A stretch of DNA of 64,000 bases from a virus. Its lineage: Duplodnaviria > Heunggongvirae > Uroviricota > Caudoviricetes. Of this stretch, positions 1,024 to 52,004 are shown in pieces; within the stretch, counting starts at the first letter, position 1; each line of letters begins with the position of its first letter. The stretch is taken from the IMG/VR virus record IMGVR_UViG_647533110_000001; one strand, written 5' to 3'. A program made the position numbers and the translations under genes. The notes beneath the pieces were generated by a model. The model saw nothing but the letters and a program-made list of their open reading frames with translations, was not told the origin of the DNA and made no database searches.

Positions 1024-1735
1024 GATGGAACGAATGTGGAATCAGTTTGACCATAAAGCGTTTATCTCAAATGATCCTATTCAAATAGTACACCAAATAC
1101 GGAATCTTTCTGGGAGAACTACAGCGGATATTGAGGTTTGTGCAATATTAACGGCTATGGTTTCATGGGGACAACGTAGTCATATAATATATTGTGCAGA
1201 GAAGTTGATGAACGTATGTGGATGGGAGCCAGGTAAATATATTAAATTGGGTGATTTTTATGATATTCCGGACGAATGTAGTATTTACCGTACTCTTACA
1301 GGAAAAATATTTAAAGAGGTGTGTCATCAATTAAGATGCTTCTACAGTAAACACGATTCTATTCAGGAATATTTAAAAAAACATCCCATTTCACTTGATG
1401 ATTTATTACTCACGCTATGCAATTGGTGTGAACCGGCCCGTCTTGGAAGTCCATATCGTAACTCTGCTTGTAAACGTATTAATATGCTATTGCGTTGGAT
1501 GGTTCGTAAAGATGAAATAGATTTAGGAGTATGGCAGACTGACTTAATCAAACCTAAAAAACTATACGCTGTTATGGATACCCATGTTGCGCAGCAAGCA
1601 CAACGTATGGGGCTTATATCTTATCCTAAAGAGAGCTGGAAGGCTGTTATGGAACTCACTCATGTTTATCGCCAATGGGATGCAGAGGATCCATTAAAAT
1701 ATGACTTTATATTAATGACAAAAAACTTGAAATAA
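1001..1735 (+). CDS. DUF2400/TIGR02757-like protein (HhH-GPD-like fold suspected)
   Basis: 244 aa; resemblance to the TIGR02757 family recalled from memory (LYAVMDTHV region); not verified. Confidence 0.4.
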   Translation: MIHTLKNEMERMWNQFDHKAFISNDPIQIVHQIRNLSGRTTADIEVCAILTAMVSWGQRSHIIYCAEKLMNVCGWEPGKYIKLGDFYDIPDECSIYRTLTGKIFKEVCHQLRCFYSKHDSIQEYLKKHPISLDDLLLTLCNWCEPARLGSPYRNSACKRINMLLRWMVRKDEIDLGVWQTDLIKPKKLYAVMDTHVAQQAQRMGLISYPKESWKAVMELTHVYRQWDAEDPLKYDFILMTKNLK

Positions 1736-1736
1736 A

Positions 1737-1919
1737 ATGATTGTTATTCTTTTAATTGTATTGTCGCTTGTCTCAATCGCGGCTATAACCATTGTGGTTG
1801 CACAGAATACAGCTTGTAAAGATTGTCCTTTTAAACGGACATGCGATGAATTGTTGAGCCAAAATCAACTTAACTTGTGCCAACAAAATAATATGCCAAG
1901 TCAAAACGAAGAGAAATAA
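1737..1919 (+). CDS. small TM protein
   Basis: 60 aa, N-terminal hydrophobic helix. Confidence 0.3.
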   Translation: MIVILLIVLSLVSIAAITIVVAQNTACKDCPFKRTCDELLSQNQLNLCQQNNMPSQNEEK

Positions 1920-1954
1920 TAAATAGATGTATAACGAACTAATTTAATAAAAGT

Positions 1955-2143
1955 ATGGATATAGAAAATAAAAACAGGGTTTCTGTAGAAGATATGAGAG
2001 CATGTTATGCTGAAAGATTTCCGTATGCACCCAATAATCAACGCATAGGACGATTTGCAAAACAAATAGGTTTCCGTCTTACCAAACAGATGGTTAAAGG
2101 GCAGATTATTAGTTTTTATATAAAAGATGATATAAGCAAATGA
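1955..2143 (+). CDS. hypothetical small protein
   Basis: 62-aa ORF, ATGA overlap with next gene. Confidence 0.25.
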   Translation: MDIENKNRVSVEDMRACYAERFPYAPNNQRIGRFAKQIGFRLTKQMVKGQIISFYIKDDISK

Positions 2144-3699
2144 GTACGTTTTCCGACAAATTCGATAACCACTGGAAGTGCATTCCATACGCAATGGCAA
2201 CGTTAACATCCAGTGATGGCTTTATGATTTTATTTCATCTGTTACGAAGAGGCTATACAGATGGGGATAAGACAACATGCGCCATATCCAACAAAGAACT
2301 AGCTGACGTCATGGGAACTTCTATTAGTTCAGTACGCCGGGCAATAGATACCTTGAAGCAACTTAATCTTATCAGCTGTTCTCAAAATAAAGGGGCACTT
2401 TGCACATTCTATGTAAATTGGAGCGAGATACGAGCAATACATAAAGTAAGTTCTCAAATATCAGATAAAGGATGGGTATATTTGCGAGGCTTGTGCTTAA
2501 ATAGCGAGGTACGTCCAATTTCAGCGATTCCATTGACCATATTGAACGATGTAGTTCGTCAATATCCACACACTTCGCTCAATATGAACACACCCTCGCT
2601 CAATATGAACACACCCTCGCTCAATATGAACACACCCTCGCTCAATATGAACACACCCTCGCTCAATATGAACACACCCTCGCAAATAGACGAAGAAAAA
2701 GGTGAAGACATAGAAAAACTATCAGAAAATATAGTCAAAGAGCAATCTAACCTCGTTCAATATGAACAGGGGTCCGCTCAATATGAACGAGGGTGCGCTC
2801 AATATGAGCAGGGGTGTGTTCATATTGAACGAGGGTCCGCTCATATTGAACAACAGAATAAGATATATATAGATAATATAGAGAATAAAGAGAATCATAA
2901 CGAACGAAGTGAGTTTAATAAAGAAACTGATATGAAGATTTTGGAATGGTTCAATTCTCGTGACTTATCTTTTCCAGATCTTTCTTCTTCTGATTTTGAA
3001 ACTATCATTAACCTTCCAGATTTTGCCGATAATGATTTTGATATGGCAATAAGAGAAGTTTGGGGATACTTGCAATATGATGAAGACTCTCCAGGTAATT
3101 ACATTCCAGCTGAATATTTCAAAGATATTCTTTACCGTGCTTGGAATGATTTAAAAACTATCAATCCGGATTTCTCTCTTTCGGAACAAGACATGAAGAA
3201 TATTTTTGGATTCGATGTTGAGATGCAGAATGGAGAACCTGTATGTTATGTGACTCCCAGTAAAATTAAAAACATCAATCAATCTCCTTCATCTTCCAGA
3301 AAAATTAAACGGAAGGGAGTAGGGGACCGAACCTCCAGATTAATATTTCTTGAATCTATCCGACAAGTCGCTGAAAGAGATACGAACATGTTGACAGATG
3401 CCGAATATGCAATATGGCTTATGATTGAGTTCGTGAAAGAACGGGAGAGTAATCAGCAACCTCGTCCATCGGAAGTGACAAAAGCAGTTTATGAAGATTT
3501 GCTTAAACGTTTCTCAAACGAATCGAAGGTACCTGTGGAAGATTTGAGAACCCTCTGGAAAGAACTTCCTCAAAAAAATACAGTTAAACTTCATCCTCAA
3601 CAGTTATCAGTCGATAAGATTATAAACTATAACGTGCAAGTAAATCAGGCAAGTGATGTGGAAGAGCTTTATAACAAAAAGATGGCAGAACAACCATGA
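2140..3699 (+). CDS. replication-initiator-like winged-HTH protein with internal iterons
   Basis: N-terminal wHTH (ELADVMGTSISSVRRAIDTLKQLNLI); tandem PSLNMNT x5 and AQYEQG-type peptide repeats encoded by DNA iterons; acidic C-terminus. Confidence 0.55.
   Translation: MSTFSDKFDNHWKCIPYAMATLTSSDGFMILFHLLRRGYTDGDKTTCAISNKELADVMGTSISSVRRAIDTLKQLNLISCSQNKGALCTFYVNWSEIRAIHKVSSQISDKGWVYLRGLCLNSEVRPISAIPLTILNDVVRQYPHTSLNMNTPSLNMNTPSLNMNTPSLNMNTPSLNMNTPSQIDEEKGEDIEKLSENIVKEQSNLVQYEQGSAQYERGCAQYEQGCVHIERGSAHIEQQNKIYIDNIENKENHNERSEFNKETDMKILEWFNSRDLSFPDLSSSDFETIINLPDFADNDFDMAIREVWGYLQYDEDSPGNYIPAEYFKDILYRAWNDLKTINPDFSLSEQDMKNIFGFDVEMQNGEPVCYVTPSKIKNINQSPSSSRKIKRKGVGDRTSRLIFLESIRQVAERDTNMLTDAEYAIWLMIEFVKERESNQQPRPSEVTKAVYEDLLKRFSNESKVPVEDLRTLWKELPQKNTVKLHPQQLSVDKIINYNVQVNQASDVEELYNKKMAEQP
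2575..2679. repeat. 5 perfect tandem 21-bp iterons TCGCTCAATATGAACACACCC
   Basis: direct reading; five exact head-to-tail copies inside the CDS 2140..3699. Confidence 0.9.
2745..2855. repeat. degenerate iteron cluster in both orientations (CTCAATATGAAC / GTTCATATTGAAC), followed by an AT-rich tract to ~2960
   Basis: five further copies of the iteron core, the last two inverted; AT-rich stretch follows. Confidence 0.7.
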
Positions 3700-3744
3700 A
3701 GTCTTTTGCCACCTTCCAGAATCCTTTTCCTTAGCCGGACTTGA

Positions 3745-4659
3745 TTATCTTATTTCGGGTTCGGCTAAAAAGTTTCTTCTAATTTCTATTTCTTCAGACA
3801 GTATTCTAATCGCATCTTTCTCTCTTCGAAAATAATTGCCTGCCAGATAACGTTTATTGCTTGTTACAGTTCCTTTTTCCACATCTGAAGTAACTTGCAT
3901 CTTATCTGTAATATACCAGTAGCGTTCTCCTGTAGCTACTTTCATGTTCAAAGGCTCAATTCGTTTTAGAAAATGATTCCATGTCTTACCAACCTTAGCT
4001 AATTCTACATCCAGAGCCTTTCTTTGATAATCCGCTGGCTTGAAAGTTGTGAACGAGAAATCATCTATTTTTCCCAAATACTCGTTCATGCTGTATTTAA
4101 CCGGTTCCCCTTTGATAACATAGCAATACATAACGATGTCTCCAGAGGATTTATCTGCAAGTCTTACGACTCCATATCCTTCTTGACCAGTTTTATGATT
4201 ATGGAAGCATACTAAATCACATGATTTGGGAATATATTTAGTGGAAATTACGAAAAATGGGTTGCCAAATTCCTGGCCATTTTCATCTAAAACTAAATAG
4301 AGGCGATTTAAAGCATTTTCTCCGGCTGGGGTTATAATGTCTACAGGAATTGTTATTTTGTCGAAATTAGGCGTGTTTCCGTCAATTCTAAGGCATATTA
4401 AAACAGTATTCACATTCCCTTCTTGTACCAAACCTATAGAATCGTTCCATTTTACTGCATCTCCAGCTCCAAATCCTTTGTCAAACCAGTTGGCAAATGT
4501 AGCGTAATCGAGAGCTTCAGGATCGTCTGAATAACTGGAAGGTACATGCAGCTTAATATTATATTCTGTTTTGCAATAAGAACTGATTCCTTTAAAGTCT
4601 ATCTCAGACTTATATTTTCTTTTTCTTAGAAAATGCTCTACTTGTTTTTTAGTTTTCAT
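3745..4659 (-). CDS. hypothetical protein
   Basis: 304-aa ORF, the only minus-strand gene in the first 30 kb; followed by a 900-bp AT-rich divergent intergenic region. Confidence 0.55.
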   Translation of the reverse strand: MKTKKQVEHFLRKRKYKSEIDFKGISSYCKTEYNIKLHVPSSYSDDPEALDYATFANWFDKGFGAGDAVKWNDSIGLVQEGNVNTVLICLRIDGNTPNFDKITIPVDIITPAGENALNRLYLVLDENGQEFGNPFFVISTKYIPKSCDLVCFHNHKTGQEGYGVVRLADKSSGDIVMYCYVIKGEPVKYSMNEYLGKIDDFSFTTFKPADYQRKALDVELAKVGKTWNHFLKRIEPLNMKVATGERYWYITDKMQVTSDVEKGTVTSNKRYLAGNYFRREKDAIRILSEEIEIRRNFLAEPEIR

Positions 4660-6459
4660 ATTTGGATAAAATAATCAATTGTTAGGCAAATGTAATATGA
4701 TTTTTTGATAAACATCAATTTGGATATAAAAATTTAGCTTAATTACCATAAAACGAGACTGAAAAAATAGGTGGCTGGAAAAAATCAGAAAACTTATATA
4801 TTGAATTTTTATATCATTGTCAATTTGAATATATTGGGAAATAATTATTTCTCTGTATTATAAAAATAAAGTTAATAAATTGATGCTGGGATAATTACAG
4901 AATCTCTACTTCCAGATTCGATATATTATAAAATTAATGTTAGAAATTGGAGATAATTTTATTGTATTGAATAACGTGGTCTGGAAGAGAATTGGCTTTT
5001 TGTACTATGATCGACTTTTGAAAAAACGAGATTGAAAAATCAGGTCGGATTATATATACGGTATTCGCTCCATAATTGACCGGCTCTGCCTTCTTTTTTT
5101 TATATTTTTTATTGCCATATTGCTGTAAATCAGTTAATTATATTGTTTCACTAATATACAAAAGTGAAACAAATGTGCTTTTGTTCTTTGTTTTGCCTAT
5201 TCTTTTGTTTTTGATACTCTTTTGAAATTATTACAAATTTACCCTTTTGTGTATGTGATTTGTTCCCGTTCCTTTTTGCATCCAGGTAACAACATCTCGC
5301 GCGCGTATATGTGTGCGTATGTGTGTATGTGTGTCGTGATTTGCCCTAATAAGTAACCACGCATACACGCACGTGTGTTGGGAATGCTTATTTAATTGAT
5401 TATCAATTGTTTATAGACGGTATTCTTTGTTGTATATTTATATATTGCTGAAAATCAGATGTTTATAAATTATTTTTAGTCTTAAAACGAAATTAATTGA
5501 TTATTTATTTGTGTATATCAAAACATTGCCATATCTTTGCAACGTCAAGTTAAGATAACGGCTACTTGATAAAGTGTTTACTTTCCGTTTTGGTTTTATC
5601 TGTAAACCTACAAAAAGCGAAAACCGCAAACAGATACGAGATAATAAACGTAATTAATAACCGTAAAAACAAGAAGTAAGAAACGGACAAAAGAAAGTAG
5701 TACATAAAAGCAAAAGGAGTGCGAAAGCGAAAGCAAAAGCGCACGCTCAGACATAAAACGGGATGTTTTGTGAACGGGGAAAAGAATACCCATAACTGTA
5801 ATGGTCAGTTATTAAAGATTGTCATGCAAACCGTCGCTGGCACTATGGGGGAGCTATATACATAAGTCTGCTACAAAAGCGTGCCATAGGTGCGTAGCTC
5901 CATGCAGCAAAAGGGAAAAGCGTGGGCTTAGTGCCATAAGTGTGCCTGTCACACTTGCATACCGAAAAACGGATGTCTGCGCAAAGGTGTGAAAATCTGC
6001 CCCTAATGCGAACTGAGAAAAGGTGAGCCAAAAGTGCGTGAAAACGTAAAACTGACTCTGTCGAAAGTGTGCCCAAGTTGCACCACCGTAATCACCAACG
6101 CAACGCAGCCCTAACAGTGAAGAAGTGTATGCCAAAAGTGTGCTTTAACGGTAACGATGGAAATTACCTACCACATAGGCGAAAGCGTATGTAAAAAACT
6201 GCAATTCAATCGGTTTGGTTGCAGTTGGTGAGCACTCATACACAAGGCGCACGGCTCCGTTGCGCTGTTAGTGACGGGCAAAAAGTTGTACATAGAGTGT
6301 GCTGGATAGGTGAATGTCCAGTATGCTCTGATTGGGCTTTAACGCAATCGAAAGCGTGTAAACGTTTTCGGTGGTGCGTTCCTATTTTGGTAGGTCGGGG
6401 TTCGATTCCCCGATTGCCTACAATGCGCTATTGCAGAAAATTCCTAAAAAACAGTAATC

Positions 6460-7152
6460 ATGGGAACAATTAGTAGGTATAACAGTGTACAATTTGAGAA
6501 CTTAAACGCAAACGAGTTGGTAGGCGTAACTTTGGTGTATAAGAGTGTAAACCGTGATGGAGAAACGCATTATTCAGGACTGAATTTTGCCGGTGATGAA
6601 TACACGCCAAAGGATAAGACACAGGACGAGATTTTCCGCGTGTGGAAAAATGTGGTAGCTACGTTCTGGACTGTGAAAGCGGTGGAAGCTGGGTTGCGTG
6701 AAGATAATGGTGGTATTGCATCCAAATTGCGTAGCGGTACACCGGCTGAAATCATAGTGCGTACAAGTGATTGCAAAGTGTCAAAGAAGTGGGATGTTGA
6801 GGGAAGTGTATGGAGCCGTATTGGTTTGGTGCCTACAAAGAAAGACCTGGATTGTGCAGCGCGTGATTTTAAGAAGAAAATCCATGCTGCTACAAAAGCG
6901 TCTTTCGATGCTCTGAAATTCCGTTTGAACTTTGAAGAAGTAGCCGCAAAAGCTGCTGACTATTATGAAATCTTGGGTGTGAAGCATGATGCTACGGAAG
7001 CGGAAATTAAAGCTGCATACAAACAAGCTGCTAAATCTGCTCATCCTGATGCCGGTGGTTCCAATGAAAAGATGCAAGAGGTAAATGCAGCATGGGAAGT
7101 TCTGGGAAATGCTCAAAAGCGTGCGGAATATGATGCGCGAATGGCTGCATAA
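6460..7152 (+). CDS. J-domain (DnaJ-like) protein
   Basis: C-terminal J domain DYYEILGV...AAYKQAAKSAHPD with HPD motif; N-terminal region unknown. Confidence 0.7.
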   Translation: MGTISRYNSVQFENLNANELVGVTLVYKSVNRDGETHYSGLNFAGDEYTPKDKTQDEIFRVWKNVVATFWTVKAVEAGLREDNGGIASKLRSGTPAEIIVRTSDCKVSKKWDVEGSVWSRIGLVPTKKDLDCAARDFKKKIHAATKASFDALKFRLNFEEVAAKAADYYEILGVKHDATEAEIKAAYKQAAKSAHPDAGGSNEKMQEVNAAWEVLGNAQKRAEYDARMAA

Positions 7153-15116: not shown

Positions 15117-15429
15117 ATCAGAAAAGACTCGTATCGCTGGAACCCAATATGATAGACGAATAAAGCTCACTCCAGACCAAAAAGAATATATAAAATGGTT
15201 GAGAGAAAAGCAATTAATCAGTTACTCTAAACTTGCTAAAATATTTGGAGTGAGCAAGCGTCTTATTCAATTTATTTGTTGCCCAGACAAATATTTGAAA
15301 AATAAAGAGAGTTTAAAACAACGTAAAGCAGAAGGGCGATACAAACCTACAAAAGCAGAATGGGCAGCAACAATTCGTGAGCACAGGAGATATAAGGAAC
15401 AACTCAAAAAGAAAGGAGATATAAAATGA
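15106..15429 (+). CDS. small HTH DNA-binding protein (transposase/resolvase-type HTH), paralog of 21119..21427
   Basis: KLTPDQKEYIKWL...LAKIFGVSKRLIQFI resembles IS-transposase N-terminal HTH; ATGA-coupled to the RT gene. Confidence 0.55.
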   Translation: MPYKSEKTRIAGTQYDRRIKLTPDQKEYIKWLREKQLISYSKLAKIFGVSKRLIQFICCPDKYLKNKESLKQRKAEGRYKPTKAEWAATIREHRRYKEQLKKKGDIK

Positions 15430-16694
15430 AAGATAAGATTCTTACAATGTTCTTCGACATTAATAGATGGACAAAAGCAATTGAGAAAGGCGTTCTGAAG
15501 GATATTCGGAAGAGCGAACTTATCAAACTGACAGAAGAACCAACCAGAATTCGCATGGCAGAAGCTATGTTGAATGGTAAATATCAAATAACACCACCAC
15601 ATATTGCACAAATCCCGAAGGATAACGGAGAGTTTCGTACTGTATATGTCAATGAACCTATTGACCGTATAATCCTAAACATCGCGAACGATTTGTTATT
15701 TGATTTAATGCCAGAGATGATTCATCCTGCTTGTAAATCTTATCAGGTCGGTATTGGTTGCGGTAAAGTGGTTCTGGAAGTAAGTCACACAATTGTTGAC
15801 ATGAAAAGTGATGGTTATGTGGGCTGGAAATCTGATTTAAGTAAATATTTCGACACTGTTCCTATCCGGTTTATTGACGCAGCTTTTGATAAGGTAGAAG
15901 CTAAGTATGGTCACTCTGTGTTAATTGATGTATTAAGAAAATACTATCATTGCGGATTGTATTTCGATGAGAACAACGAACTGCATGAAAAATATCAATC
16001 ACTTAAACAAGGATGCGCAGTAGCAAGCTGGTTAGCCAACGTGTTGCTATATAGCCTGGATGATGAACTGTCCCAATTGAATGGGTTTTACGTAAGGTAT
16101 TCGGATGATATGTTGTTCGTTGGTCCGGACTATGAAAAGGCTATGACCATTTTACAAAAGAGATTGGCCGAAAAATCAATGAATTTGAATCCCAAGAAAG
16201 TAGAGTACCTGACTATGGACAAGTGGTTTAAATTTCTAGGTTTCAGCATTAAGGGAAGTATGATTTCTTTCTCTCCCAATCGTCTTAAAACCTTCCAGAA
16301 AGAAATAGAATCAAGAACCATCAGAAAACGTGGTATTACGTTGAAGAAGGCTGTGGATTCGGTTAACCGATATTTATATAAAGGCAATGGAGAATATAGT
16401 TGGGCGACTCAGACCCTTCCAGTATGTAATGTTCGGGTTGATATTAATGAATTGAATAAATTCGTAATGGATTGCCTTAGAGCCGTTGAAACTGGGAAAC
16501 ATAAAGTTGGTGGCCTTGGCTATGTTAAGGATAAGCCGGATGGTTGTGTTGTTAGAAGTATTGGTCGGAACGTAAAGGCTAATCGAAATAAATCTAAGAG
16601 TAAAGAAATTGAAGGTTATTTGACAATAGGTTGTATGCAGAATGCTATTTTGACCAGAAGAGCAGCGTACAATACTTTAGTGGCAATATTGTAA
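15426..16694 (+). CDS. reverse transcriptase, unassigned class
   Basis: RT motifs 1-7: IPKDNGEFRTVY, GWKSDLSKYFDTVP, LKQGCAVASWLANVLL, YVRYSDDMLFVG (YxDD), LNPKKVEYL, FKFLGFSI; no En/maturase/DGR IGxxxSQ signature. Confidence 0.85.
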   Translation: MKDKILTMFFDINRWTKAIEKGVLKDIRKSELIKLTEEPTRIRMAEAMLNGKYQITPPHIAQIPKDNGEFRTVYVNEPIDRIILNIANDLLFDLMPEMIHPACKSYQVGIGCGKVVLEVSHTIVDMKSDGYVGWKSDLSKYFDTVPIRFIDAAFDKVEAKYGHSVLIDVLRKYYHCGLYFDENNELHEKYQSLKQGCAVASWLANVLLYSLDDELSQLNGFYVRYSDDMLFVGPDYEKAMTILQKRLAEKSMNLNPKKVEYLTMDKWFKFLGFSIKGSMISFSPNRLKTFQKEIESRTIRKRGITLKKAVDSVNRYLYKGNGEYSWATQTLPVCNVRVDINELNKFVMDCLRAVETGKHKVGGLGYVKDKPDGCVVRSIGRNVKANRNKSKSKEIEGYLTIGCMQNAILTRRAAYNTLVAIL

Positions 16695-38582: not shown

Positions 38583-38668
38583 GCCGCAATGGTGGAATTG
38601 GTAGACACGATGGACTTAAAATCCATTCGTCCGAAAGGACGGTGCAGGTTCGACTCCTGTTTGCGGCA
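38583..38668 (+). tRNA. tRNA-Leu(TAA)
   Basis: acceptor GCCGCAA/TTGCGGC, D arm, anticodon loop CTTAAAA, long variable arm, T arm GCAGG-TTCGACT-CCTGT; no encoded CCA. Confidence 0.85.
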
Positions 38669-38874
38669 CAATGACATAAGTCAACAAGAGTTCTTTGAAA
38701 TATACCAAACTTAATATGCGATGAAAAAGTATATAGAACAATTCTTTTTTATGATAGCGGTCTTATTCATAGGCAATAGAGTATTCAATCATGTTGACGC
38801 TTGGTTGGGAATTGCTATATGTTTTGGGGTTTGCTATCCAGTTATTAACATCATTAAATTAATTATCAAAAAAC

Positions 38875-39666
38875 ATGAAAACGAAGATTAAGTTTATGTT
38901 GGTTGCTCTTATGGCAACAGTGATTTTTTCATCTTGTGAGCGTGTTGCTCCTAACTATGCCGGTGTCCTTATGGAGAATTATGGTAAGGAAGGTAAAGAA
39001 GATTTTAAGATTGTATCCGGAAAAGTTTCCACATGGGAATGGGGAACAGAGTTGTTTCAGGTGCCATTGTTTGAACAGCGTGGAGGATTTCAGAAATCAG
39101 TTACCCTAAAAGCTGCTGACAATACAGAGTTCAATGCTACTCCGTTATACTCATATAGAGTTATCAAAGACAAGGCAATTGACGTTGTTTTTGATAATAA
39201 ACATATCGGAAACGGAGATGGATTTATGAGATCTTTGGAAGACAATATTCTGGAACCACGTATTTACGACCTTATTAAAGAAGAAAGCCGGAAATATAAA
39301 ACAGATACACTTATGGCTGATGGGGGTTCTTTAGCTTTTGAGAAGAAGCTGGAGGATATTGTTAGGGCGGAATTTAAAGATAGAGGATTGGACCTGAAGT
39401 CATTTTCAGCCCAATTAGAATTTAGTGATCGAGTCCGGGAAAAGATTGATAATAGAAACGAGGTTAACACTAATATTTCCGTTATTGATCAGAAAATCGA
39501 AGAGCAGAAAAAGCAAAACGAACTGGAAAGATTAAAAACCGAACAGGCTCTTATCACATCGAAAGGGTTAACTAAAGAAATTCTATATAAACAGTTTATT
39601 GATAAATGGGACGGAAAAACACCGCTGTATGGGGTAATTCCAGAATTTCTGAAGATGACGAATTAA
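38875..39666 (+). CDS. lipoprotein, possibly SPFH/band-7-like
   Basis: signal peptide plus lipobox (FSSC); C-terminal coiled coil; SPFH assignment tentative. Confidence 0.55.
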   Translation: MKTKIKFMLVALMATVIFSSCERVAPNYAGVLMENYGKEGKEDFKIVSGKVSTWEWGTELFQVPLFEQRGGFQKSVTLKAADNTEFNATPLYSYRVIKDKAIDVVFDNKHIGNGDGFMRSLEDNILEPRIYDLIKEESRKYKTDTLMADGGSLAFEKKLEDIVRAEFKDRGLDLKSFSAQLEFSDRVREKIDNRNEVNTNISVIDQKIEEQKKQNELERLKTEQALITSKGLTKEILYKQFIDKWDGKTPLYGVIPEFLKMTN

Positions 39667-40006
39667 AACTCATAAATAAATTGGAAAGAGGAGGGGTGCG
39701 ATCCATGTAGTTTCCAACTTTGGTTTCGCTGGGATGGCTGCATGGGTTGTTAAGAAGCATCTTGGAAAAATGTTTTGCACCCCTTTATTCCTCTGGATGG
39801 AAATTATGTAAAATGCTTGAATGCCTGTGAACCGATCGTATTTCACATTCCAAATGGCAAGAAAGCTCAATTGTTGTTTTTACGTCCTACGGACGGCTTA
39901 TCGTCTTTTGATTTCCTGTATAAGAGTTTGTATCTCTCGTACAAGGAGGACAAGCAACAGCAAATAAATTTCCATTGCGGCTGCAAAGTTAAGGATTTTG
40001 CAGTGA

Positions 40007-40076
40007 TGGGCAATAGTTTAATTGGTAGAACGTCCGTTTTTAACGGAAAGTCCGGGTTCAAGTCTCGGTTGTCCAA
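40007..40076 (+). tRNA. tRNA-like element, possibly Lys(TTT), weak anticodon stem
   Basis: acceptor TGGGCAA/TTGTCCA (one G-U), D arm GTTT..GAAC, loop TTTTTAA, T arm CCGGG-TTCAAGT-CTCGG; lies at the 3' end of a ~400-nt structured segment. Confidence 0.3.
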
Positions 40077-40444
40077 CGAATTATAAATAGCCTGTAATAT
40101 ATTAAAAAGAGAAACTTTAATTATTTTTTAACTTATAATATACATTATGAAAATTGTTTTTAACAAATCATCTTTTGAGTTTGACGGTTTAAATGTTGTA
40201 TTGAGCGTTATACTATTATATGCGGCGTTCAATAACGAGTTGTCTTTTAATCCCTTCTATTTGGATTCTGTATGGCTAAAAGGTATATGGATAGCTTTTT
40301 TGATTATTCTATTTATTTTATTGATACTAAGAGGTATTCTCTTAGTCATTCAACTGAAAAGGATATTCAAAGAAAAGAAAGTAAATAAAGACAATTAATG
40401 TGTTAACGCTTTCTATTAAATGCCGGTGAAAAATCCGGCTGTTT

Positions 40445-40516
40445 GCTCGGTTCGTTTATCGGAAAGGACATCTGCCTTTCGAGCAGAAAAGAATGGTTCG
40501 ACTCCATTACCGAGTA
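40445..40516 (+). tRNA. tRNA-like, Glu(TTC)-type, non-canonical D arm
   Basis: acceptor GCTCGGT/ACCGAGT, anticodon arm TCTGC-CTTTCGA-GCAGA, T arm AATGG-TTCGACT-CCATT; 72 nt. Confidence 0.4.
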
Positions 40517-40729
40517 CAACAAGCCCGAAGTACAAGGGAACGAACATGCAGGTTATGTTGAGACAAGTCAATATACAAGTAAACTAAGCCCTGTCCGGAA
40601 TCGTTGGTCCGGGAGTGTGATACCGAGCTATTGGTAGAATCGGTATGTTAGATGTCTTTATGGGAGTGTTCGATTCCTCCACCATCGCCGAAAGGGGATG
40701 GGTCGGTTAGGGAGATAAAGACATCATTT

Positions 40730-40801
40730 GCTCTTATAGCTTAGTGGTAGAGCAGATGACTGTTAATCATCAGGTCGGTGGTTCAAATCCATCTAAGAGC
40801 G
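40730..40801 (+). tRNA. tRNA-Asn(GTT)
   Basis: acceptor GCTCTTA/TAAGAGC, D arm GCTTAGTGGTAGAGC, anticodon loop CTGTTAA, T arm GGTGG-TTCAAAT-CCATC. Confidence 0.8.
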
Positions 40802-40884
40802 CATTTAAGGTTAAAAAGATTGTTATTGGATTAGCTTATTTTTCTTTCCGCGAAGCTGTGAAGTTGTGAAACTTCCAGCTATCT

Positions 40885-40955
40885 GGTTCATTAGCCAAGT
40901 GGTAAGGCAATGGTCTACAAAACCATGATCGCAGGTTCGATTCCTGCATGGGCCT
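40885..40955 (+). tRNA. tRNA-like, anticodon loop CTACAAA (ACA), isotype uncertain
   Basis: acceptor GGTTCAT/ATGGGCC with two G-U pairs, D arm GCCAAGTGGTAAGGC, T arm GCAGG-TTCGATT-CCTGC. Confidence 0.45.
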
Positions 40956-41314
40956 CATAAAAATGGGGAGTTGAAATTACTCCCCAAAGATGACAACCAT
41001 AGGGCTAATATGGTTGTGAAATCAAAATGACAGCGGCTATTCGCAAAGTTGAATCAAAAGAGATATGACAGCTATAATTGTCTGAAGGACAACACAGATT
41101 GCAACTATATTGTCTCTTCGCTCTTGGCTAAAATGATTCGATTTACCCGTAGGTTTAGTTATATTGCTTGCAAAGGTAAGTGAAATTTGCGATAAACTGT
41201 CTTTTGACCGAAAAACTGTTAAGGGTTAAGTGGAAACCGGCCCCTGTGCAATTACTGGAAACTTCAGTACAAACACTCATCCGGTCATGGTGGTTACAGT
41301 TGCTCCACCATTAT

Positions 41315-41387
41315 AGTACATTAGTTCAGTGGTTAGAACGCTACATTGTCACTGTAGAGATCACGAGTTCGATTCTCGTATGCACTG
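41315..41387 (+). tRNA. tRNA-Asp(GTC)-like with one acceptor-stem mismatch
   Basis: D arm GTTCAGTGGTTAGAAC, anticodon arm CTACA-TTGTCAC-TGTAG, T arm ACGAG-TTCGATT-CTCGT. Confidence 0.5.
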
Positions 41388-42112
41388 CAAAAATACAACC
41401 ATGCAGCCAACTACTGCATGGAGAAAGATAAAAATAAATCAATTGTTAAATCTACGGACAATCCATTTGCCTATAAGGTAGATTGCAGTACAAACCGCGA
41501 AACTGGCAGTAATTGACACTGCTAATGTCAAGTCCAGATTGATGTCGTAGTTAACATTAACATTTACATTGGTCGTAAAGTTTGCGTTAATGTTTGTATT
41601 ACAGCTATTTATAGCAAACATTTGAAGGAAAGCCGTTATCAACGGATTCATTTCAATCTGTTTTAACCGCAAAGATACGGCTTTTCTTCTTATTGTCCGT
41701 CTAAAAGCATTATTATGAGTAGTCAAACAAAAACATCCGGTAATGGAATCGGATTCTTAGGATTGCTGGCAATTGTGTTTATCACATTAAAGTTGTGCAA
41801 TGTAATCAATTGGTCATGGTAGTGGGTGACTATGCCTCTCTGGGCATTTCCAGTCGCATGTTTGTGGGGATCGATTATTGCAGTGATTGTATGTTTTTTA
41901 CTTTCATGTTTAATCGTATTATGAAGCGGAAATAATCACATATTCATAATGTACGCTGCACTTATTACAGATATTTTACTAATTGTTTCAAGGTAGTATT
42001 GGATAAGTTTGGGAAATGGATAAAACGGAACGACAATAAAAAATATAATGTAGATAATATAACCAAATAAATAAGTATATTTGCGTAGTGTTATGTAATT
42101 TATATAAATGAT

Positions 42113-43886: not shown

Positions 43887-44210
43887 AAGAGTGAAAAAAA
43901 TGGTATAATAACATGTTGCAATTTAATAGAGATACATATTCTGAAGCCAACTCTCCCATTAAAAATCGCATAGAGCGAAGAAGATTGGCAAAAGGACGAA
44001 AATAAAATCTCTAATAGTTATACATAGTCTAAAAACTTTTGTATCTTTGAAACATAAAACAAGTGAGTCTATCCTACATTTATTAACCTATGGTTGGTAA
44101 TGTAGATGAATTGAAATATTGGGATGTGATACTAAAATGATACCAAATGTGTAATTATCTGACTATCAACATCAATTTTACCCCCTGAGGGTGTATATGC
44201 TGTATTTGAG

Positions 44211-44723
44211 GTGAAGCCTGATATTGGAGGAACATCCGCCGGTAAGCACAATATTGTATATGCTGGAGAAAAAGTCGCAAGTGTTAGACGACTTATGAGA
44301 ACTAGTACTCATATGATTAATTCAGGTCAAAAGTATGCCCCTCGACCGTTAACTAAAATTATCGGAGGTATTCTCGGCACCAATTGTTCACAAAAAGAAG
44401 ATACCGTCGAAAAGCATATTAAAGAACTTTCTGGATTTTATACATTAGAAATGGGGTGTACCATTGAAAACGGTAGTTTCTTTGTTGACTATAACAACAA
44501 AGAGGGAGAAACTGAAATTAAGACTGCGAATTTCGAGGATTTTCAAAAATACTACAATAACAGAGAATTTAATTCTATCAAATTCAGCAATCCAAATCAT
44601 TCCCTGATTATGTTTCTGATGCAGCTTACAAGTTATTTGCAACAATCAATAGGTACAGTGCCAGCAATCGATATGCAGAAATATTTGGACAACATTAACG
44701 AAACTATCGATGATGAAATTTAA
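44211..44723 (+). CDS. hypothetical protein
   Basis: 170-aa ORF; true start may be downstream. Confidence 0.4.
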   Translation: MKPDIGGTSAGKHNIVYAGEKVASVRRLMRTSTHMINSGQKYAPRPLTKIIGGILGTNCSQKEDTVEKHIKELSGFYTLEMGCTIENGSFFVDYNNKEGETEIKTANFEDFQKYYNNREFNSIKFSNPNHSLIMFLMQLTSYLQQSIGTVPAIDMQKYLDNINETIDDEI

Positions 44724-45017
44724 TCAGAGAAGTTCTCAGTTTATCAGCATTAGAATTTCAAGGTAGTGTAAACTGAACTGTGTCAAGTCTTGTTTACACT
44801 ACCAAAATCCCAACAGCTATGGAAATGACCTATGTCCACCCAAGGACACCAGGCATTAAGCATTGCTCTTTATGGAGATAGCAGGCCTCTGAAACGGCCT
44901 GTTATTTTTATTCTGGGTATCAATGCGCTCGTTCGTTTTCTTTACTAGGGCACTGAAGTAATTTTTGCCACAAAATTGAATATTTTTTGTGGCATTATAC
45001 ATCATTGTGGTATTCAT

Positions 45018-45623
45018 TCAATCTTCATCATCCTCGTATGAACAAGTCCAATCTTTCGTCTGAAACTCTTTCCCAAAGGCCTCCAAATCCGCACTAAGTC
45101 TCTCTTGCAGACCCTCTTCTCCGTCATCACCACTCATCATCCGATCTACGCGAGTTGCATATATTTCTGCTATACGCATTTGCCGATAGGCTTCCTTCAT
45201 AACATTTATCGTCTCGTCAGACAGATTCAAGACATCAGCGTCATACGGATAGCGGTCATAATAACAATGATGGATTGAGTATAATACCGGAATCTGTTCG
45301 CCGTCAGAAGTGTCAGACATATATCGCGTTGTTGATTGGAATATCACCCCATCACCAAAGAATTGTCGGTCTACATATTTTTGTTCTGCCTTAACGATAG
45401 TTGTATCTCTTAGAAGAAAAGATTCCGCATCTTTATAACTGGCAAAACTCATGTAGTCCTTATAGCTATGGTATGAGCCAAAGCTATCTTTCTCGTAAAT
45501 AGTCCAATAGTTTTCATAAACCTTTTCTGGCTTTGGCTGTAAGGCTCTTGCTATATCACGCTCAATAGTATCCGCTATCTCGCGCATTGCATATGTGCTC
45601 CTATCAAAATATCCGCCACTCAT
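45018..45623 (-). CDS. hypothetical protein, co-operonic with AAA+ ATPase
   Basis: 201 aa, 20 bp downstream of the ATPase stop. Confidence 0.5.
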   Translation of the reverse strand: MSGGYFDRSTYAMREIADTIERDIARALQPKPEKVYENYWTIYEKDSFGSYHSYKDYMSFASYKDAESFLLRDTTIVKAEQKYVDRQFFGDGVIFQSTTRYMSDTSDGEQIPVLYSIHHCYYDRYPYDADVLNLSDETINVMKEAYRQMRIAEIYATRVDRMMSGDDGEEGLQERLSADLEAFGKEFQTKDWTCSYEDDED

Positions 45624-45643
45624 AGTTCTTTAATTTAATCAAT

Positions 45644-47026
45644 TCATTTCATCAACTCAACAACATCTTCCGGCAACATCGCATTCCCTGCATCATCTTT
45701 CGGAGCATTCTTAAGGAGCAACATCGGAACAATGGTATAGTTCTTGGCAAACGGCAATAAATTAGCCTTGCGAAGAAGTTCAGTTGTTAACTGTTTACCA
45801 TTCTCTTGATTTGTCCATTTACATTCTCCAACCAGCAGATATTTTTTATCAAGAGATTCAGCCATTACATCAAATTCCACTTGTTCAGGCTTCTTATCCT
45901 CATTGAGAACAGAACCCCACCAGCGTTTTGCCTTACCGTAAACAATTCCATTGACCATATTTCCCGTTACAGCATCCCTGCATAGTTTTTCCCAATGCAT
46001 ACTCACATACTCCGAGAAATGGGCTGCCAATGCCTGTTCTAATGGTAAACGACGACCAAGCTCGATGAACGAACGGTTAGGCACGACAAACTGATAGTAG
46101 AATGCCATAAAAGGGTCTGCAATCTTATATAGGCTCTTTTTTGCATTCTTTTCGTCAATTCCGAACGGAACATCTTTCTCTAAAAATCCGAGGTCAATAA
46201 GTTTCTTCAATGGACGTGACAGATTAGTTGCAGGCTCATTACATCTGGCAGCAATCTCAGAAAGACGATTTGCACCGGATCCGATATAGGACATGATTGT
46301 AGAAGTCTTGACAATGTCCTTCACATCATCTTGAAACAGTTTTATCGGCTCCTCGTAAAGAGTGCCATTTACAGAAAGGATATTGTGCCACAACGCATCG
46401 GAAAGTGAACTTCTGTTTTCTCGCAGTTCCCAGTAACGAGGCACACCGCCCCATACAGCATACTCTTCAACGGCACCCACAGCGTCAAGGTTCAAAGCCT
46501 CCTGAATATACGGCAAGCGTATAGGCATAAGTCTCATAATCTCATCAGCACGGCCATAGAGAGGTGCCGTAGAATCAAGAAACAGTCCATACATCATATT
46601 TTGCGATGAACCACAAAGTACAAGATTATACTTCAACTGCTTTTCATCAACAAATTTCTGCAACACTGACGGCAGTTCCGGGGATTGTTCCACCAGATAC
46701 GGAAATTCATCCAGGCATAGCGTGAAACGCTTGTCTGTGCGATAATTGACCGCACGAAACAGAGACTCCCAATCCGGATAAGTCAACTTGTCAAAATCAG
46801 GAAATACTTGTGCTACTACCTTTGCAAGTAAAGTCCTTTGGTGCTGTCCTTCCGAACGGTCAGCAAGGAAATATACATCACTGTCCGACAACACCCTTTT
46901 GATAAGTGTTGACTTACCCAATCGCCTGCGACCGTACACTACGACCAACGAGGACTTCTCTCTTGAAAGAGCATCCCTCAGTCGTGCTGTTTCTTCTATT
47001 CTATCAACGAAGTTCATATTCAACAT
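45644..47026 (-). CDS. AAA+ ATPase (Arch_ATPase/DUF234-type ATP-binding protein)
   Basis: Walker A GRRRLGKSTL; Walker B LCLDEFPYL. Confidence 0.7.
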   Translation of the reverse strand: MLNMNFVDRIEETARLRDALSREKSSLVVVYGRRRLGKSTLIKRVLSDSDVYFLADRSEGQHQRTLLAKVVAQVFPDFDKLTYPDWESLFRAVNYRTDKRFTLCLDEFPYLVEQSPELPSVLQKFVDEKQLKYNLVLCGSSQNMMYGLFLDSTAPLYGRADEIMRLMPIRLPYIQEALNLDAVGAVEEYAVWGGVPRYWELRENRSSLSDALWHNILSVNGTLYEEPIKLFQDDVKDIVKTSTIMSYIGSGANRLSEIAARCNEPATNLSRPLKKLIDLGFLEKDVPFGIDEKNAKKSLYKIADPFMAFYYQFVVPNRSFIELGRRLPLEQALAAHFSEYVSMHWEKLCRDAVTGNMVNGIVYGKAKRWWGSVLNEDKKPEQVEFDVMAESLDKKYLLVGECKWTNQENGKQLTTELLRKANLLPFAKNYTIVPMLLLKNAPKDDAGNAMLPEDVVELMK

Positions 47027-47109
47027 TAATTATGTATTGCAAACATAATGATTATGCAGCATAATACAAAATTTCAAGCCAAGTGTTTTTCTATATGGCA
47101 AAAGAATTT

Positions 47110-48900
47110 AATGTAAGGTAAGCGTCTCCAGGATGCCGTATCAGCATAAGAAAAGCAGGGTCACTGGCCCTGCTTGTTCTTTTTCCAGCGGTCTGGAAGT
47201 ATATCTCTGTACGCTTCCAGTGTGGCGGACCTCTGCAAGACATCCGCTCTGTTAAGTATGTCTGTGAGGTACTCGAAGAAGTTTATCTTGTGCAGCCTGC
47301 ATGAACATGCGAGAGAGTAGAAGATGCAGCCACGCTCTGCTCCGGCATGGCTGCCGAAGAAAAGGGAATTCTTTCTGGACAAGGATATGTACCTGTTGAT
47401 TCTCTCAATGAGATTATTGTCCCACGAGTAGTCTCCACCAGTAGTTATAGCTTCGATACCATCCCATTCGTTGAGCATGTATTTGGCGGCCTTGAACATC
47501 TGCGACTTTGGAGGATATTTCCGAGGTTGAGACTTGATCTTGAGAAGCATCTCCTTCATCTGCCTGAGTATATGAGACGCATACTCCTGTCGCCACCTCA
47601 GATTATCTTTGACCGTCCAGCCGTCTTCTCCGATCTTATGCTTATGTTCATTCTGATAGAGCTGATTGGCTAGAGTCAGTATCTTGTCTGCATCAGCATT
47701 GCCTTTCATGTCCAGGAACTCTCTCTTGCAATGCTGAAGACAGGCTAGTCTTAATATCTTTCCTCCGGACTGTGCTGCGACTTTCTTGTAAGCTCCCAGG
47801 CCATCTGACTGTATCGCTCCGCTATATCCCTTGAGCTCTTTCAGTATTACCTCTTCGCTTCTTGAACCATCATCATAGAAGAAGTATGCCAGGCCGAGAT
47901 GTGCTGCTACAATCACCCAGACATAACCCTTGCGGCTTCCCTTGCCGTCATTCAGTTCCTTCTTTACGAGAACTCTGTGGTAGGTCTCATCGCAGCAGAG
48001 ATAGTTATCTTCTTTGACTGCCTTCTGCATCGCCTTGTATAAGTTTTCGAACAGAAGTGCTGTCTTCTTCAGCAGCCCGTGAGCGGTCTGTTTGTCGATA
48101 TTGAAGCCGTTCTCGTTAAAGTACGCCACGATACGTTCCACCGGCATTGAGTACAGATAACGGAGCTGGGCTATGCCTGAGATGAACGACCCGTCGAAGC
48201 TGGAGTTCTGAAGAGGTGCAAGAGGAGCCTTTGCGCTTACAAGCTTATCTCCATCCTTTACTGTGTGGATATAATACAAGTGTTTGATGAACCTTGGAGG
48301 TATCATCTCATAGCGGACAGTCTCTCTTGTACTGAGCGGCTTCCGTCCTTCCATGCCGTCAGGATACACGTCATGCTTGACTGTCTCCATCTCGAAATGC
48401 ATATTACGCTTTGCACCATTGTTACCGCGGGACTTGCGCTCAACTTCCTTCTGAGCAATCTCTTCTTCTGTCTTAGGAGTTACTGGAGTAGATGCTTGTT
48501 TCTCTGACTTCTTCTCAAGAAGCTTTGACATGCCACGAACTTGATTGTTGGCCTTGTCGAGACTCTTGTCGCGTTCTTTCAGGAGAGACTCCAGATTCGC
48601 TATAGTCTCGCGAAGCTCTGAGATGGTCACGACCATGGCATTCATGCTGGCAGACATGTTGTCAATAGTGAGTCTCAGCTGATCGTTTGTCGCATTCGAC
48701 GCCTTCAGCCGAGACTCCAAAAGTTTGATTATCATGTCCTTTCCCATACATCTAAGGTACGAAGAAAAACGAGATATGTAATAGTTTTTAAGATTTATTT
48801 TATTGGTAATATTCTTAACCATCTTAAAAATATACACTTAAATATTTTATAATCAATATATTATAAGAAAGGTAATTTTAATGGAGAAACAAATAAGGAA
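47110..48900 (-). mobile_element. IS66-family insertion sequence, single ORF; boundaries approximate
   Basis: terminal GTAAGCG motif at ~47116 as in IS66 inverted repeats; opposite inverted repeat not found; no tnpA/tnpB ORFs. Confidence 0.45.
47161..48747 (-). CDS. IS66-family transposase
   Basis: N-terminal coiled coil; DETYHRV, GYVWV, DGLGAY and CLQHCKREF (zinc/H..RRxF) motifs; C-terminal DNNLIERINRYISLSRKNSLFFGSHAGA..YSL; start chosen at MGKDMII. Confidence 0.8.
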   Translation of the reverse strand: MGKDMIIKLLESRLKASNATNDQLRLTIDNMSASMNAMVVTISELRETIANLESLLKERDKSLDKANNQVRGMSKLLEKKSEKQASTPVTPKTEEEIAQKEVERKSRGNNGAKRNMHFEMETVKHDVYPDGMEGRKPLSTRETVRYEMIPPRFIKHLYYIHTVKDGDKLVSAKAPLAPLQNSSFDGSFISGIAQLRYLYSMPVERIVAYFNENGFNIDKQTAHGLLKKTALLFENLYKAMQKAVKEDNYLCCDETYHRVLVKKELNDGKGSRKGYVWVIVAAHLGLAYFFYDDGSRSEEVILKELKGYSGAIQSDGLGAYKKVAAQSGGKILRLACLQHCKREFLDMKGNADADKILTLANQLYQNEHKHKIGEDGWTVKDNLRWRQEYASHILRQMKEMLLKIKSQPRKYPPKSQMFKAAKYMLNEWDGIEAITTGGDYSWDNNLIERINRYISLSRKNSLFFGSHAGAERGCIFYSLACSCRLHKINFFEYLTDILNRADVLQRSATLEAYRDILPDRWKKNKQGQ

Positions 48901-49597
48901 CAAAAATAGGAATTAAAGTGATTTCTCATTTTTCTATTTGCACTCTGTTTCTTTCTTTTCGTTTGTTTGCTTTCAGAGTGCATTCCGAGCAATTTTATCT
49001 GCTCTCATCATTCGAAGAATTTGCTCCTAACTTTAACTAACAAATTATTTGCAGCTCATAAAGAGAATACAAATTATTATCTCTTGAAGTTGTATTGCTT
49101 GTAGCAAAGATAATCTTTTTTGTACAGGCAGCCAAAAATGCCTGCCTATATTTAGTTTAATTTAGTTTAGCATATATAAGGCTAACAAACTAAACCAAAC
49201 TGGATTTTCATGTTACTTTTTGTGATTTTCCCATTCTACCCATACAGCCAAAAGAGAAGATAAGCTCTTGCCTCTTTTCTCTTTTCGCTGCGATACTCTT
49301 TTACTTCATAGCCACCTTTTACACACATCCGTACCGAGCAAACTCCCACATGCTCGCATATCAACTTTCGGTCTGCCCGATGGGAATTGTGTCGCAAAGG
49401 TATTTGCCATGTCTTTATTGTATGCAAGGTTGTAACCTGAAGGTTCACTACAAAATCTCCACGCTCCGCTTCGCAGAGGTAGTATTTTGTAGTGAAACCC
49501 TGCATACATAGCCATGCCACCTGTTGAAGCGACATAATTTCAATCAAGCCCGAAAGTAAGTGAAATGCTACAGGAGGGAAAGTAACAAACTTAAAAC

Positions 49598-49909
49598 TTG
49601 GTATTTATGGCAAATTATGCAACCAACATTTTCCACGCAAGAACGGAAAATAAAACAGACCTCGACAAAATAGAGGCTTTCTTGGATGACACTTTCAGCG
49701 AATTTACCAATCGATATGGTGATAGTGTAGATGCAGAATTTTCCTCTCGTTGGGTGTATCCAGAAGAAGAAATCAAAAAATTGGTAGAATCGTTGGAGGA
49801 CAAAGATAAAGTCTATATCAAGATTCTAACCTATGAATTTGAAGACGAGTACGTGAGCTTTAGAATATTCTCTCAGGGAGAATGGAAGGTCAAATTAATA
49901 ACTGAATGA
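49598..49909 (+). CDS. hypothetical protein
   Basis: 103-aa ORF. Confidence 0.4.
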   Translation: MVFMANYATNIFHARTENKTDLDKIEAFLDDTFSEFTNRYGDSVDAEFSSRWVYPEEEIKKLVESLEDKDKVYIKILTYEFEDEYVSFRIFSQGEWKVKLITE

Positions 49910-50091
49910 GTAGAAGAAGATAAAGTAAAATTATGGTCTATCCTACACTTTGCTTATTCTATAAGAGACACACGGATGGAACGATTGTCGGTGATTTCGA
50001 CAACAAAATCACTGTTCGTTTCATCTGTGGCAAAGAGAGAGTATTAAATACTGTGATGAAGTAATTTTTACAATTTTACAACATAGAAACC

Positions 50092-50421: not shown

Positions 50422-50435
50422 AAATCAAAAGAAGC

Positions 50436-51030: not shown

Positions 51031-51058
51031 TAGTAACAATAAAAACAAAAATAACATT

Positions 51059-51280: not shown

Positions 51281-51292
51281 AAACTATATACA

Positions 51293-51865: not shown

Positions 51866-52004
51866 AGATTAATGATGTCTGAAGAAGTTATCACTTACAA
51901 CGATAACTCCAGTCGTTTTAAAGGACGGCATCAGCATTTGACCTACTAAATACATAAGTTCCCAATTTACGATTGGAGACTTATGTATTTTTCTGTATGG
52001 AAAA

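Follow-up and report, generated by a model that had tools for sequence, protein, structure and literature searches.

A probable replication origin inside the initiator-like gene of a large temperate Bacteroides phage

Some replication initiators act on an origin that lies within their own gene. The replisome organiser G38P of phage SPP1 is reported to be such a case, with oriL inside gene 38 and an N-terminal domain that binds the repeats. In phage lambda, iterons followed by an AT-rich tract are found within the O gene; the Stx phages possess six iterons compared to four in lambda, adding 13 residues to the O protein, and their outer iterons are bound weakly (PMC7466680). In Rep of the Staphylococcus plasmid pSK41, an N-terminal winged-helix (DnaD-like) domain binds Rep boxes located centrally in rep, the origin-encoded central linker is dispensable as protein, and a genus-specific C-terminal domain binds the DnaG primase (PMC5703833). 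Iterons of the RepA_N type are semi-palindromes, the inverted halves of which converge on an A/T tract (PMC7145576). Rep of pPR9 is a chimeric initiator with an HTH_36 (PF13730) N-terminal domain of phage origin and drives autonomous replication (PMC5703833). Here we describe a locus of similar layout in a 64,000-nucleotide (nt) stretch of DNA, the IMG/VR virus record IMGVR_UViG_647533110_000001 (in the following called the window), which is part of a large Bacteroides prophage. The repeats and the AT-rich tract within the gene of a 519-amino-acid (aa) protein probably constitute the lytic (theta-type) origin of a large temperate Bacteroides phage, placed inside the linker-coding part of its initiator gene.

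The locus comprises the following features, given by their positions in the window.
2140..3699, plus strand: initiator-like gene, 519 aa; open reading frame (ORF) containing the whole candidate origin
2140..2580, plus strand: N-terminal winged-helix DNA-binding domain (aa 1-147), presumed reader of the iterons (AlphaFold, Pfam, PHROGs, Foldseek)
2535..2549, minus strand: extra inverted iteron CGTTCAATATGG, centre 2541, in phase, 42 nt from the first array-1 centre
2555..2574, plus strand: degenerate iteron copy TCAATATCCACACAC, overlapping the DnaA-box-like ATATCCACA
2575..2679, plus strand: array 1, five exact 21-nt iterons (direct reading, Tandem Repeats Finder, repeat finder)
2581..2910, plus strand: predicted disordered linker segment (aa 148-257), from the AlphaFold predicted local distance difference test (pLDDT)
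2680..2752, plus strand: spacer between the arrays, 94 nt centre to centre, ~9 helical turns
2753..2815, plus strand: array 2, three direct iterons (cores 2757-2767, 2778-2788, 2799-2809), in a frame different from array 1
2816..2853, minus strand: array 2, two inverted iterons (cores 2818-2828, 2839-2849)
2855..2960, no strand: AT-rich tract, candidate DNA-unwinding element; core 2855-2900 83% AT, 2855-2960 74%
2899..2915, plus strand: degenerate mini-hairpin remnant AACGAAC-GAA-GTGAGTT, 5 of 7 pairs
2911..3696, plus strand: C-terminal domain (aa 258-519), conserved in the family, no known fold; presumed recruiter of host replication proteins

The unit of array 1, TCGCTCAATATGAACACACCC, follows itself five times head to tail without a mismatch, exactly as an earlier note on the sequence had stated for 2575..2679. 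The same note had described a second, degenerate cluster with two inverted copies at its end, and this is found as array 2 (2753-2853), with three direct and two inverted units and again a period of 21. Its fourth unit is a near-perfect reverse complement of the whole array-1 21-mer, and the centre-to-centre spacing of 21 nt is maintained through the switch in orientation. Two sites go beyond those listed earlier, the inverted CGTTCAATATGG (centre 2541) and the degenerate TCAATATCC (2559-2567), which keep the 20-22 nt phasing. In total, ~12 sites with 20-22 nt spacing are present in the window, with the consensus accctCG(C/T)TCAATATGA(A/G)Cacaccc and an imperfect palindrome, TTCA-ATA-TGAA, as site core. 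Allowing at most one mismatch, the 11-mer core TCAATATGAAC matches 13 times in the 64 kb, with 10 of these matches at 2579-2849, and none of 100 shuffled sequences reached 13 (mean 2.65, maximum 8). Elsewhere in the 64 kb, the core motif does not occur beyond chance.

Translation agrees with the earlier reading that all repeats lie inside ORF 2140..3699 and yield PSLNMNT x5 and AQYEQG-type peptides: the protein contains (P)SLNMNT x5, then QYEQG/QYERG and HIERG/HIEQQ. One DNA core is translated three ways in the window, as LNMN, as QYE and, inverted, as HIE. The DnaA-box-like ATATCCACA (2562-2570) is an 8/9 match. Such boxes occur in the relatives at about chance numbers and at unrelated positions, and because the position is not conserved, this match is probably a chance one.

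Phage lambda was passed through the same scripts as a positive control. Its annotated iterons, spaced by 20-24 nt, occupy nt 349-433 of the O gene. They are immediately followed by the most AT-rich stretch (nt 436-475, 80% AT), and this by an inverted repeat, GTCAGAG...CTCTGAC. The layout at the window locus is the same, and the computation supports the proposal of the earlier note that this is a lambda O-like origin within an initiator gene. Lambda O, and likewise O of the Stx phages P27 and 933W, shares with the window protein the N-terminal DNA-binding domain, the mid-gene iterons, the AT-rich tract, the inverted repeat and the C-terminal domain. In both, the iterons lengthen the linker and their number varies between related phages. 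However, the window has ~12 sites and its relatives up to 21 half-sites compared to 4-6 in the lambda group, the sites are divided into two arrays with a spacer, some of them are inverted, and the period is exactly 21 bp. Furthermore, the C-terminal domain is unrelated, the host is Bacteroides and not an enterobacterium, and in place of a P-like loader gene, a convergent ORF (3745-4659) comes next.

The pSK41/RepA_N arrangement is an equally close analogue. In pSK41 Rep and in RepA of the Vibrio cholerae PLE, a central origin likewise encodes the linker between N- and C-terminal domains, and semi-palindromic iterons converging on an A/T tract are found in the window (TTCA-ATA-TGAA) and in three relatives, L007, L009 and L015. 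In contrast to these replicons, the window belongs to a phage and not to a plasmid, has many more sites, and Pfam RepA_N matched in none of 26 family members. HTH_36, the N-terminal domain type of pPR9 Rep, is the commonest Pfam match in the family (10 of 26 members at E <= 0.01, best 1.5e-5), but the match of the window protein itself is below threshold (21.4 bits vs 25) and the C-terminal domain differs. The origin-in-initiator-gene layout is reportedly common to SPP1 G38P as well, and Phage_rep_org_N gives a weak, sub-threshold Pfam match. Two traits typical of iteron-type theta origins are present in the window, namely at least three repeated sites of ~17-22 bp in phase with the helix, and selection on the repeats at the DNA level.

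An AlphaFold model, built with a 26-member family alignment, shows two confident domains, aa 9-147 and aa 260-519, with pLDDT mostly 80-96 in the N-terminal one. Values below 50 were obtained for aa 148-243 and 245-257, corresponding exactly to the iterons plus AT tract (window 2581-2910). The N-terminal winged helix-turn-helix (HTH) read from the sequence in the earlier note is borne out by this model, by sub-threshold Pfam HTH matches at aa 30-100 (HTH_Crp_2, HTH_36, Phage_rep_O, Phage_rep_org_N) and by the Foldseek neighbours of the full-length model in PDB, which are winged helices of MarR, ArsR, CodY and RepE54. Using PHROGs, the N-terminal domain matched 'replication initiation O-like' and 'DnaD-like helicase loader' families at 1e-6; across the family, seven of the nine matched PHROGs were replication initiators (best E 1.2e-8). 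At the family level, the N-terminal domain matched phage replication initiators only (PHROGs O-like, DnaD-like and 'replication initiation'), and it matched no non-replication family such as a surface repeat protein, the possibility named earlier as the one that would overturn the origin reading. Phage_rep_O was matched at E <= 0.01 by 3 of the 26 members. A sequence-profile search of PDB returned generic HTH regulators only (E >= 0.016).

We searched 1.8 billion representative proteins, yielding ~30 full-length family members (representatives at 50% identity) of 493-748 aa, and analysed 12 distant loci at the DNA level. All family members keep the N- and C-terminal domains, and their central repeats encode entirely different peptides. 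Each of the 12 loci has its own semi-palindromic motif with 8-21 half-sites, the motifs being wholly different between members, such as ACCTGCTCA-GAAAT-TGAGCAGGT in L007, CCTATGCA-AAAAT-TGCATAG in L009, GGTCAAATTTTGACC in L015 and TCATGGTCA-TGTGG-TGACCATGA in another distant locus. The arrays always begin at gene nt 395-480 (12 of 12), usually as two arrays with a spacer of 73-126 nt. At most loci the motif is read in two or three frames in unchanged orientation, and inverted copies give unrelated peptides.

The spacing of the sites follows the DNA helix. The 75 centre-to-centre spacings in the family cluster at 21, 30-34, 42-44 and 60-65 nt, and their phase coherence peaks at 10.5-10.75 bp (Rayleigh R 0.68), which was reached by none of 20,000 random sets, even those of multiples of 3. 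We then compared the window with relatives at 74-79% protein identity, counting synonymous changes in codons for identical residues. These amounted to 38% in the N-terminal domain and 43-44% in the C-terminal domain, but to 0/45 and 0/48 in array 1 plus flank, raw counts that overstate the significance as the array-1 copies are not independent of each other. The same trend was seen in the 13 flank codons and in array 2 (15-19%).

Lastly, the motif changes together with the protein that presumably reads it. Members with the recognition helix GTS(I/V)SS(V/I)RRAI(D/E)TL have the iteron of the window, down to 74% identity, and an altered helix goes with a different iteron: L026 has the helix GVSSSTVLRAIKNL and the iteron CCCATATCATAATGA, and the group with the helix GVSYHTVNNSIKEL has the iteron CCTATGCA-N5-TGCATAG. 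Five independent tests, i.e., conservation of architecture but not of sequence, use of different frames and orientations, helical phasing, the freeze of synonymous sites and co-variation with the recognition helix, show that selection acts on the DNA of the repeats and not on the peptide.

A subfamily carries an insert of ~40 aa between the two iteron arrays, with the rough consensus CNxSSHYxxKxxxxYxLxVVLSNAExLLxxxxG (P0125, P0126, P0136, P0138, P0145, P0148, P0150 and P0153; e.g., gene nt 787 to 907 in L012). It is a small folded module within the otherwise variable linker.

Downstream of the arrays, 2841-2900 is the most AT-rich 60-nt stretch of the gene (80% AT). The AT-rich stretch that had been noticed at about 2860..2960 is real, with 83% AT at 2855-2900, but it is shorter and less extreme than had been described, the whole of 2855-2960 having 74%. 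In eight of the first nine genes analysed, no more than ~70 nt separate the last iteron from the start of the most AT-rich 60 nt; this maximum is located further downstream in L016 and L017.

At ~30 nt beyond the last iteron, 8 of the 12 loci have a perfect hairpin that contains GC and has a loop of three bases; shuffled sequences predict 0.31 such loci. Examples are AACGAGC-GAA-GCTCGTT, GGGAGC-GAA-GCTCCC, GCAGC-GAA-GCTGC and GCGAGC-GAA-GCTCGC. The hairpin was predicted from nine loci and then present in all three loci fetched later. Its stems vary by compensatory change, the encoded peptides differ (ERSSFN, ERSSHN, QCSEAA and others), and the hairpins of the relatives have folding energies of -6.0 to -6.8 kcal/mol (z -2.8 to -4.2). 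The remnant in the window does not fold (0 kcal/mol). In seven of the 12 members, GCGAAGC or GCGNAGC mini-hairpins adjoin the unwinding region. GCGNAGC is the extraordinarily stable DNA mini-hairpin of the G4, ST-1 and alpha3 priming sites and of RSF1010 ssiA, and such mini-hairpins mark primase recognition sites (PMC13037366). The hairpins of the family differ from those of these origins in being located in a double-stranded, iteron-type origin within a coding sequence, the window copy being degenerate. About 10-20 nt past the mini-hairpin, a G-tract, AATA(A)AGGGGG(A/G), is conserved in most relatives, with instances in L009 (gene nt 797-806), L012, L013, L015 and L017; in the window it has decayed to AATAAAGAAAC (2916-2926). 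The G-tract may be part of the same single-strand signal as the mini-hairpin.

The number of array-1 units is the only difference between alleles that otherwise share 98-100% identity, and array 2 is invariant. Copy numbers of 3, 4, 5, 6, 8, 9, 10 and 11 were seen, each unit adding 7 aa to protein lengths that range from 505 to 561 aa. The high numbers come from long contigs and complete genomes; those of short-read assemblies, which may collapse or miscount array 1, are unreliable, and the five copies of the window may be an under-count. Array 1 contains the start or end of the IMG/VR contigs L025, L027, L029/L035 and L034, with the breaks at residues 144-174 of the protein. Exact tandem repetition of 21 nt disrupts assembly and accounts for the frequent breaks in assemblies of these phages at the initiator gene. 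All copy-number changes preserve the frame, and phase variation was rejected as an explanation. Half-site expansion recurs in the family, as an independent expansion was found in the L036 lineage: at L036 gene nt 412-531, the unit CCTATGCAGAAAATG of 15 nt is repeated eight times in tandem (ENAYA x8), compared to 2-3 copies in close relatives (compare L033 and L009).

Taken together, the repeats are constrained as DNA, helically phased and co-varying with the recognition helix. The linker encoded by them is predicted to be disordered, and the N-terminal domain is initiator-like. Analogy with lambda O and pSK41 Rep suggests binding of the protein to its own repeats, melting of the AT tract and recruitment of other proteins by the C-terminal domain. 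In the mechanism we propose, the 519-aa protein would be made upon induction. Its N-terminal winged-helix domain, probably as a dimer, would bind the ~12 sites at the core CG(C/T)TCAATATGA(A/G)C. With sites every 21 bp, i.e., two turns, and arrays ~9 turns apart, all bound protein would be on one face of the DNA. Oligomerisation would wrap the DNA into an O-some-like complex, the strain would melt the AT-rich tract at 2855-2900, and the C-terminal domain would recruit host replication proteins (helicase, its loader or primase). The binding step is suggested by the co-variation and the family matches, the later steps by what is known of lambda O and pSK41 Rep.

Only tentatively do we consider that the family possesses two features undescribed for iteron-type origins of double-stranded DNA phages. 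One would be the GCGAAGC-type mini-hairpin plus G-tract as a single-strand priming or loading signal, located on the coding strand and acting once the AT tract melts; the phage of the window would then represent a lineage that lost the mini-hairpin signal. The other would be the distal array, whose 3 to 11 copies could adjust the firing of the origin or the incompatibility of prophages that reside in one host.

The origin reading is supported because all elements of the lambda O/ori-lambda layout are present in lambda's order, and it is favoured by the position of the gene in an early block beside dUTPase and NAD-dependent ligase genes. Several observations weigh against it. The match to Phage_rep_O (PF04492) is below the gathering score (17.6 bits vs a cut-off of 28.7, E 5.7e-3), as is that to Phage_rep_org_N (17.4 bits vs 23.3), and for RepA_N (PF06970) the window protein gave no match at E <= 1, nor any of the 26 members at E <= 0.01. 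The profile of the N-terminal domain scored only 7 bits against lambda O, in a co-linear alignment. The structural neighbours found with Foldseek are generic winged helices, none at E <= 0.001. The 80% AT of the gene's richest stretch is within the top 2% of 60-nt windows of an AT-rich sequence, and the intergenic region 4660-5560 is richer. The non-independence of the array-1 copies belongs here too, together with the possibility that recent expansion or gene conversion could partly explain their identity. None of the neighbouring ORFs that were scanned was recognised as a helicase, loader, primase or polymerase. Since the sequence-model tests for Phage_rep_O and RepA_N failed and HTH_36 stayed below threshold, we assigned the protein to a new family. 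Judged from sequence, it would work in the manner of lambda O and of RepA_N initiators, and membership in the lambda O family is not demonstrable. The architecture of the origin is of a known kind and not surprising; the protein family is one that curated family models do not recognise.

Other explanations have to be considered. The repeats might be bound by the gene's own product for a purpose other than initiation, such as autoregulation or copy control by handcuffing, as a partition centromere or as a packaging-recognition site. Phased semi-palindromic arrays are, as is generally known, also found in plasmid centromeres and control iterons, array 1 ranges from 3 to 11 copies without obvious cost, and the element is found on ~90-100 kb contigs that are possibly free circles. 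The weak binding of the outer iterons in Stx phages (PMC7466680) suggests that some of the window sites may be regulatory. We nevertheless consider such a role unlikely: the N-terminal domain matches replication initiators and not ParB-, ParR- or TerS-type families, an AT-rich tract, plus a priming-type mini-hairpin in relatives, follows the arrays, which neither centromeres nor operators need, the gene lies in the early DNA-metabolism block and not beside a terminase, and the element is integrated in complete chromosomes. A small terminase with its pac site was rejected on account of the protein size, the PHROG matches and the early-block position.

The true origin might also lie in the AT-rich, ORF-free region 4660-5560, with the intragenic repeats as accessory elements. 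Of the 12 most AT-rich 60-nt windows in the first 9 kb, 6 fall into this region, and a gap of similar size is retained in relatives. It contains, however, only two-copy repeat families, no iteron arrays and none of the initiator's sites, and the right half of the gap resembles a conserved structured RNA more than an origin, making this location quite improbable. We give even less credence to the idea that the repeats are a slippage-prone, low-complexity peptide linker, i.e., a coding variable-number tandem repeat without a DNA role, whose likeness to an origin is coincidental. The segment is indeed predicted to be disordered, the copy number shifts in frame-preserving 21-nt steps, and short-read assemblies can miscount or break at the arrays. 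A mere linker, though, would not retain inverted copies or one motif in three frames, hold spacings at multiples of 10.5 bp, freeze synonymous sites where the lineages differ by ~40% elsewhere, or swap the whole motif with each change of the recognition helix.

The chromosomes of B. xylanisolvens, B. ovatus, B. thetaiotaomicron and B. faecis encode homologues of the initiator-like protein with 92-100% identity, as do many metagenomic contigs of ~90-100 kb. More than 1000 homologues come in total from Bacteroides genomes and from metagenomes. IMG/VR classes the element as viral, and complete chromosomes carry it in integrated form. Among deposited phage and plasmid records, no relative of the protein was found, including by tblastn of the initiator against deposited phages, and megablast of window 1-37000 against phages and plasmids returned only two short pieces, common to the Bacteroides phages BS-TP1 and BS-TP2. 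In curated sources the protein is labelled 'hypothetical' or 'Crp-like HTH'; a relative in BFVD was automatically named 'Replication initiator A family protein'.

Upstream of the window, a portal gene of the Mu type is encoded on the minus strand, and an early block diverges from it, in the order DUF4494, dUTPase, NAD-dependent ligase, a small integrase-like gene, DUF2400, two small ORFs and the initiator-like gene. The gene order around the latter is kept in all fetched relatives, even those with initiators only 21-50% identical. Directly 3' of it, the convergent ORF 3745-4659 (minus strand, ~304 aa) is present at the corresponding place in nearly all relatives, with a similar length of 302-314 aa. 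PHROGs gave no family for this ORF, and in Pfam it matched a cap-snatching endonuclease below threshold only (E 0.004).

Then follows an ORF-free gap of ~1.8 kb (4660-6460), kept in all relatives, whose right half (5560-6450) is GC-richer and has a tRNA-like element, GGTAGGTCGGGGTTCGATTCCCCGATTGCCTACA (~6390-6423), at its end. Between phages with initiators ~31% identical, the final ~170 nt of the gap share 80% identity; they are also found at L010 7440-7616 and L012 7430-7604. This stretch shows compensatory changes in the T-stem (TCGGGG/CCCCGA, TCAAGG/CCTTGA, TCGGAG/CTCCGA) and in an acceptor-like stem, and Rfam gave only sub-threshold tRNA-like matches (mascRNA, tmRNA T-arm). Positions 5560-6450 are a candidate for a large structured RNA with a tRNA-like 3' end. 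Rfam gave no match at or near the origin locus, and only tRNAs elsewhere in the window. A scan of 1700-6600 for sigma-70 promoters and terminators, which is ill-suited to Bacteroides promoters, gave matches no commoner than in shuffled sequences.

Directly 3' of the ORF-free region, a phage-encoded J-domain (DnaJ) protein is located at 6460-7152 (plus strand; Pfam DnaJ 8e-20), and L010 and L012 have it at the same position. Host DnaJ and DnaK are needed in lambda replication to remodel the preprimosome, and by analogy a link between the J-domain protein and the candidate origin is conceivable.

Further along the window, ORF 15426-16694 (plus strand, 422 aa) matches a PHROG reverse transcriptase family (2.7e-20). 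Six tRNA genes at 38583-41388 (plus strand; Leu-TAA, Lys-TTT, Glu-TTC, Asn-GTT, Cys-ACA and Asp-GTC) are probably phage-owned, as they lie inside a low-GC, plus-strand block. From ~44000 to 64000, the GC content rises from 0.33-0.37 to 0.40-0.47, gene strands are mixed, and a transposase (47161-48837, minus strand), a 1038-aa DarB-like methyltransferase/helicase (53966-57082) and an integrase (61658-62872, minus strand) are encoded; this part probably corresponds to the end of the prophage or to another mobile element. GC skew was dropped as an origin marker since it follows the all-plus-strand transcription from 5 to 44 kb.

Temperate phages of Bacteroides are abundant in the human gut, and we found no description of their replication in the literature. 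If our interpretation is correct, the locus would be the first candidate origin of a widespread group of ~100-kb temperate Bacteroides phages and would define both their initiator and their origin module, with predicted binding sites at base resolution. The family would moreover provide a natural specificity series of at least eight distinct pairs of iteron and recognition helix, and with it material for studying the co-evolution of initiator and origin specificity. Compatible Bacteroides replicons, inducible copy-up vectors and the annotation of this family in gut viromes would be possible uses.

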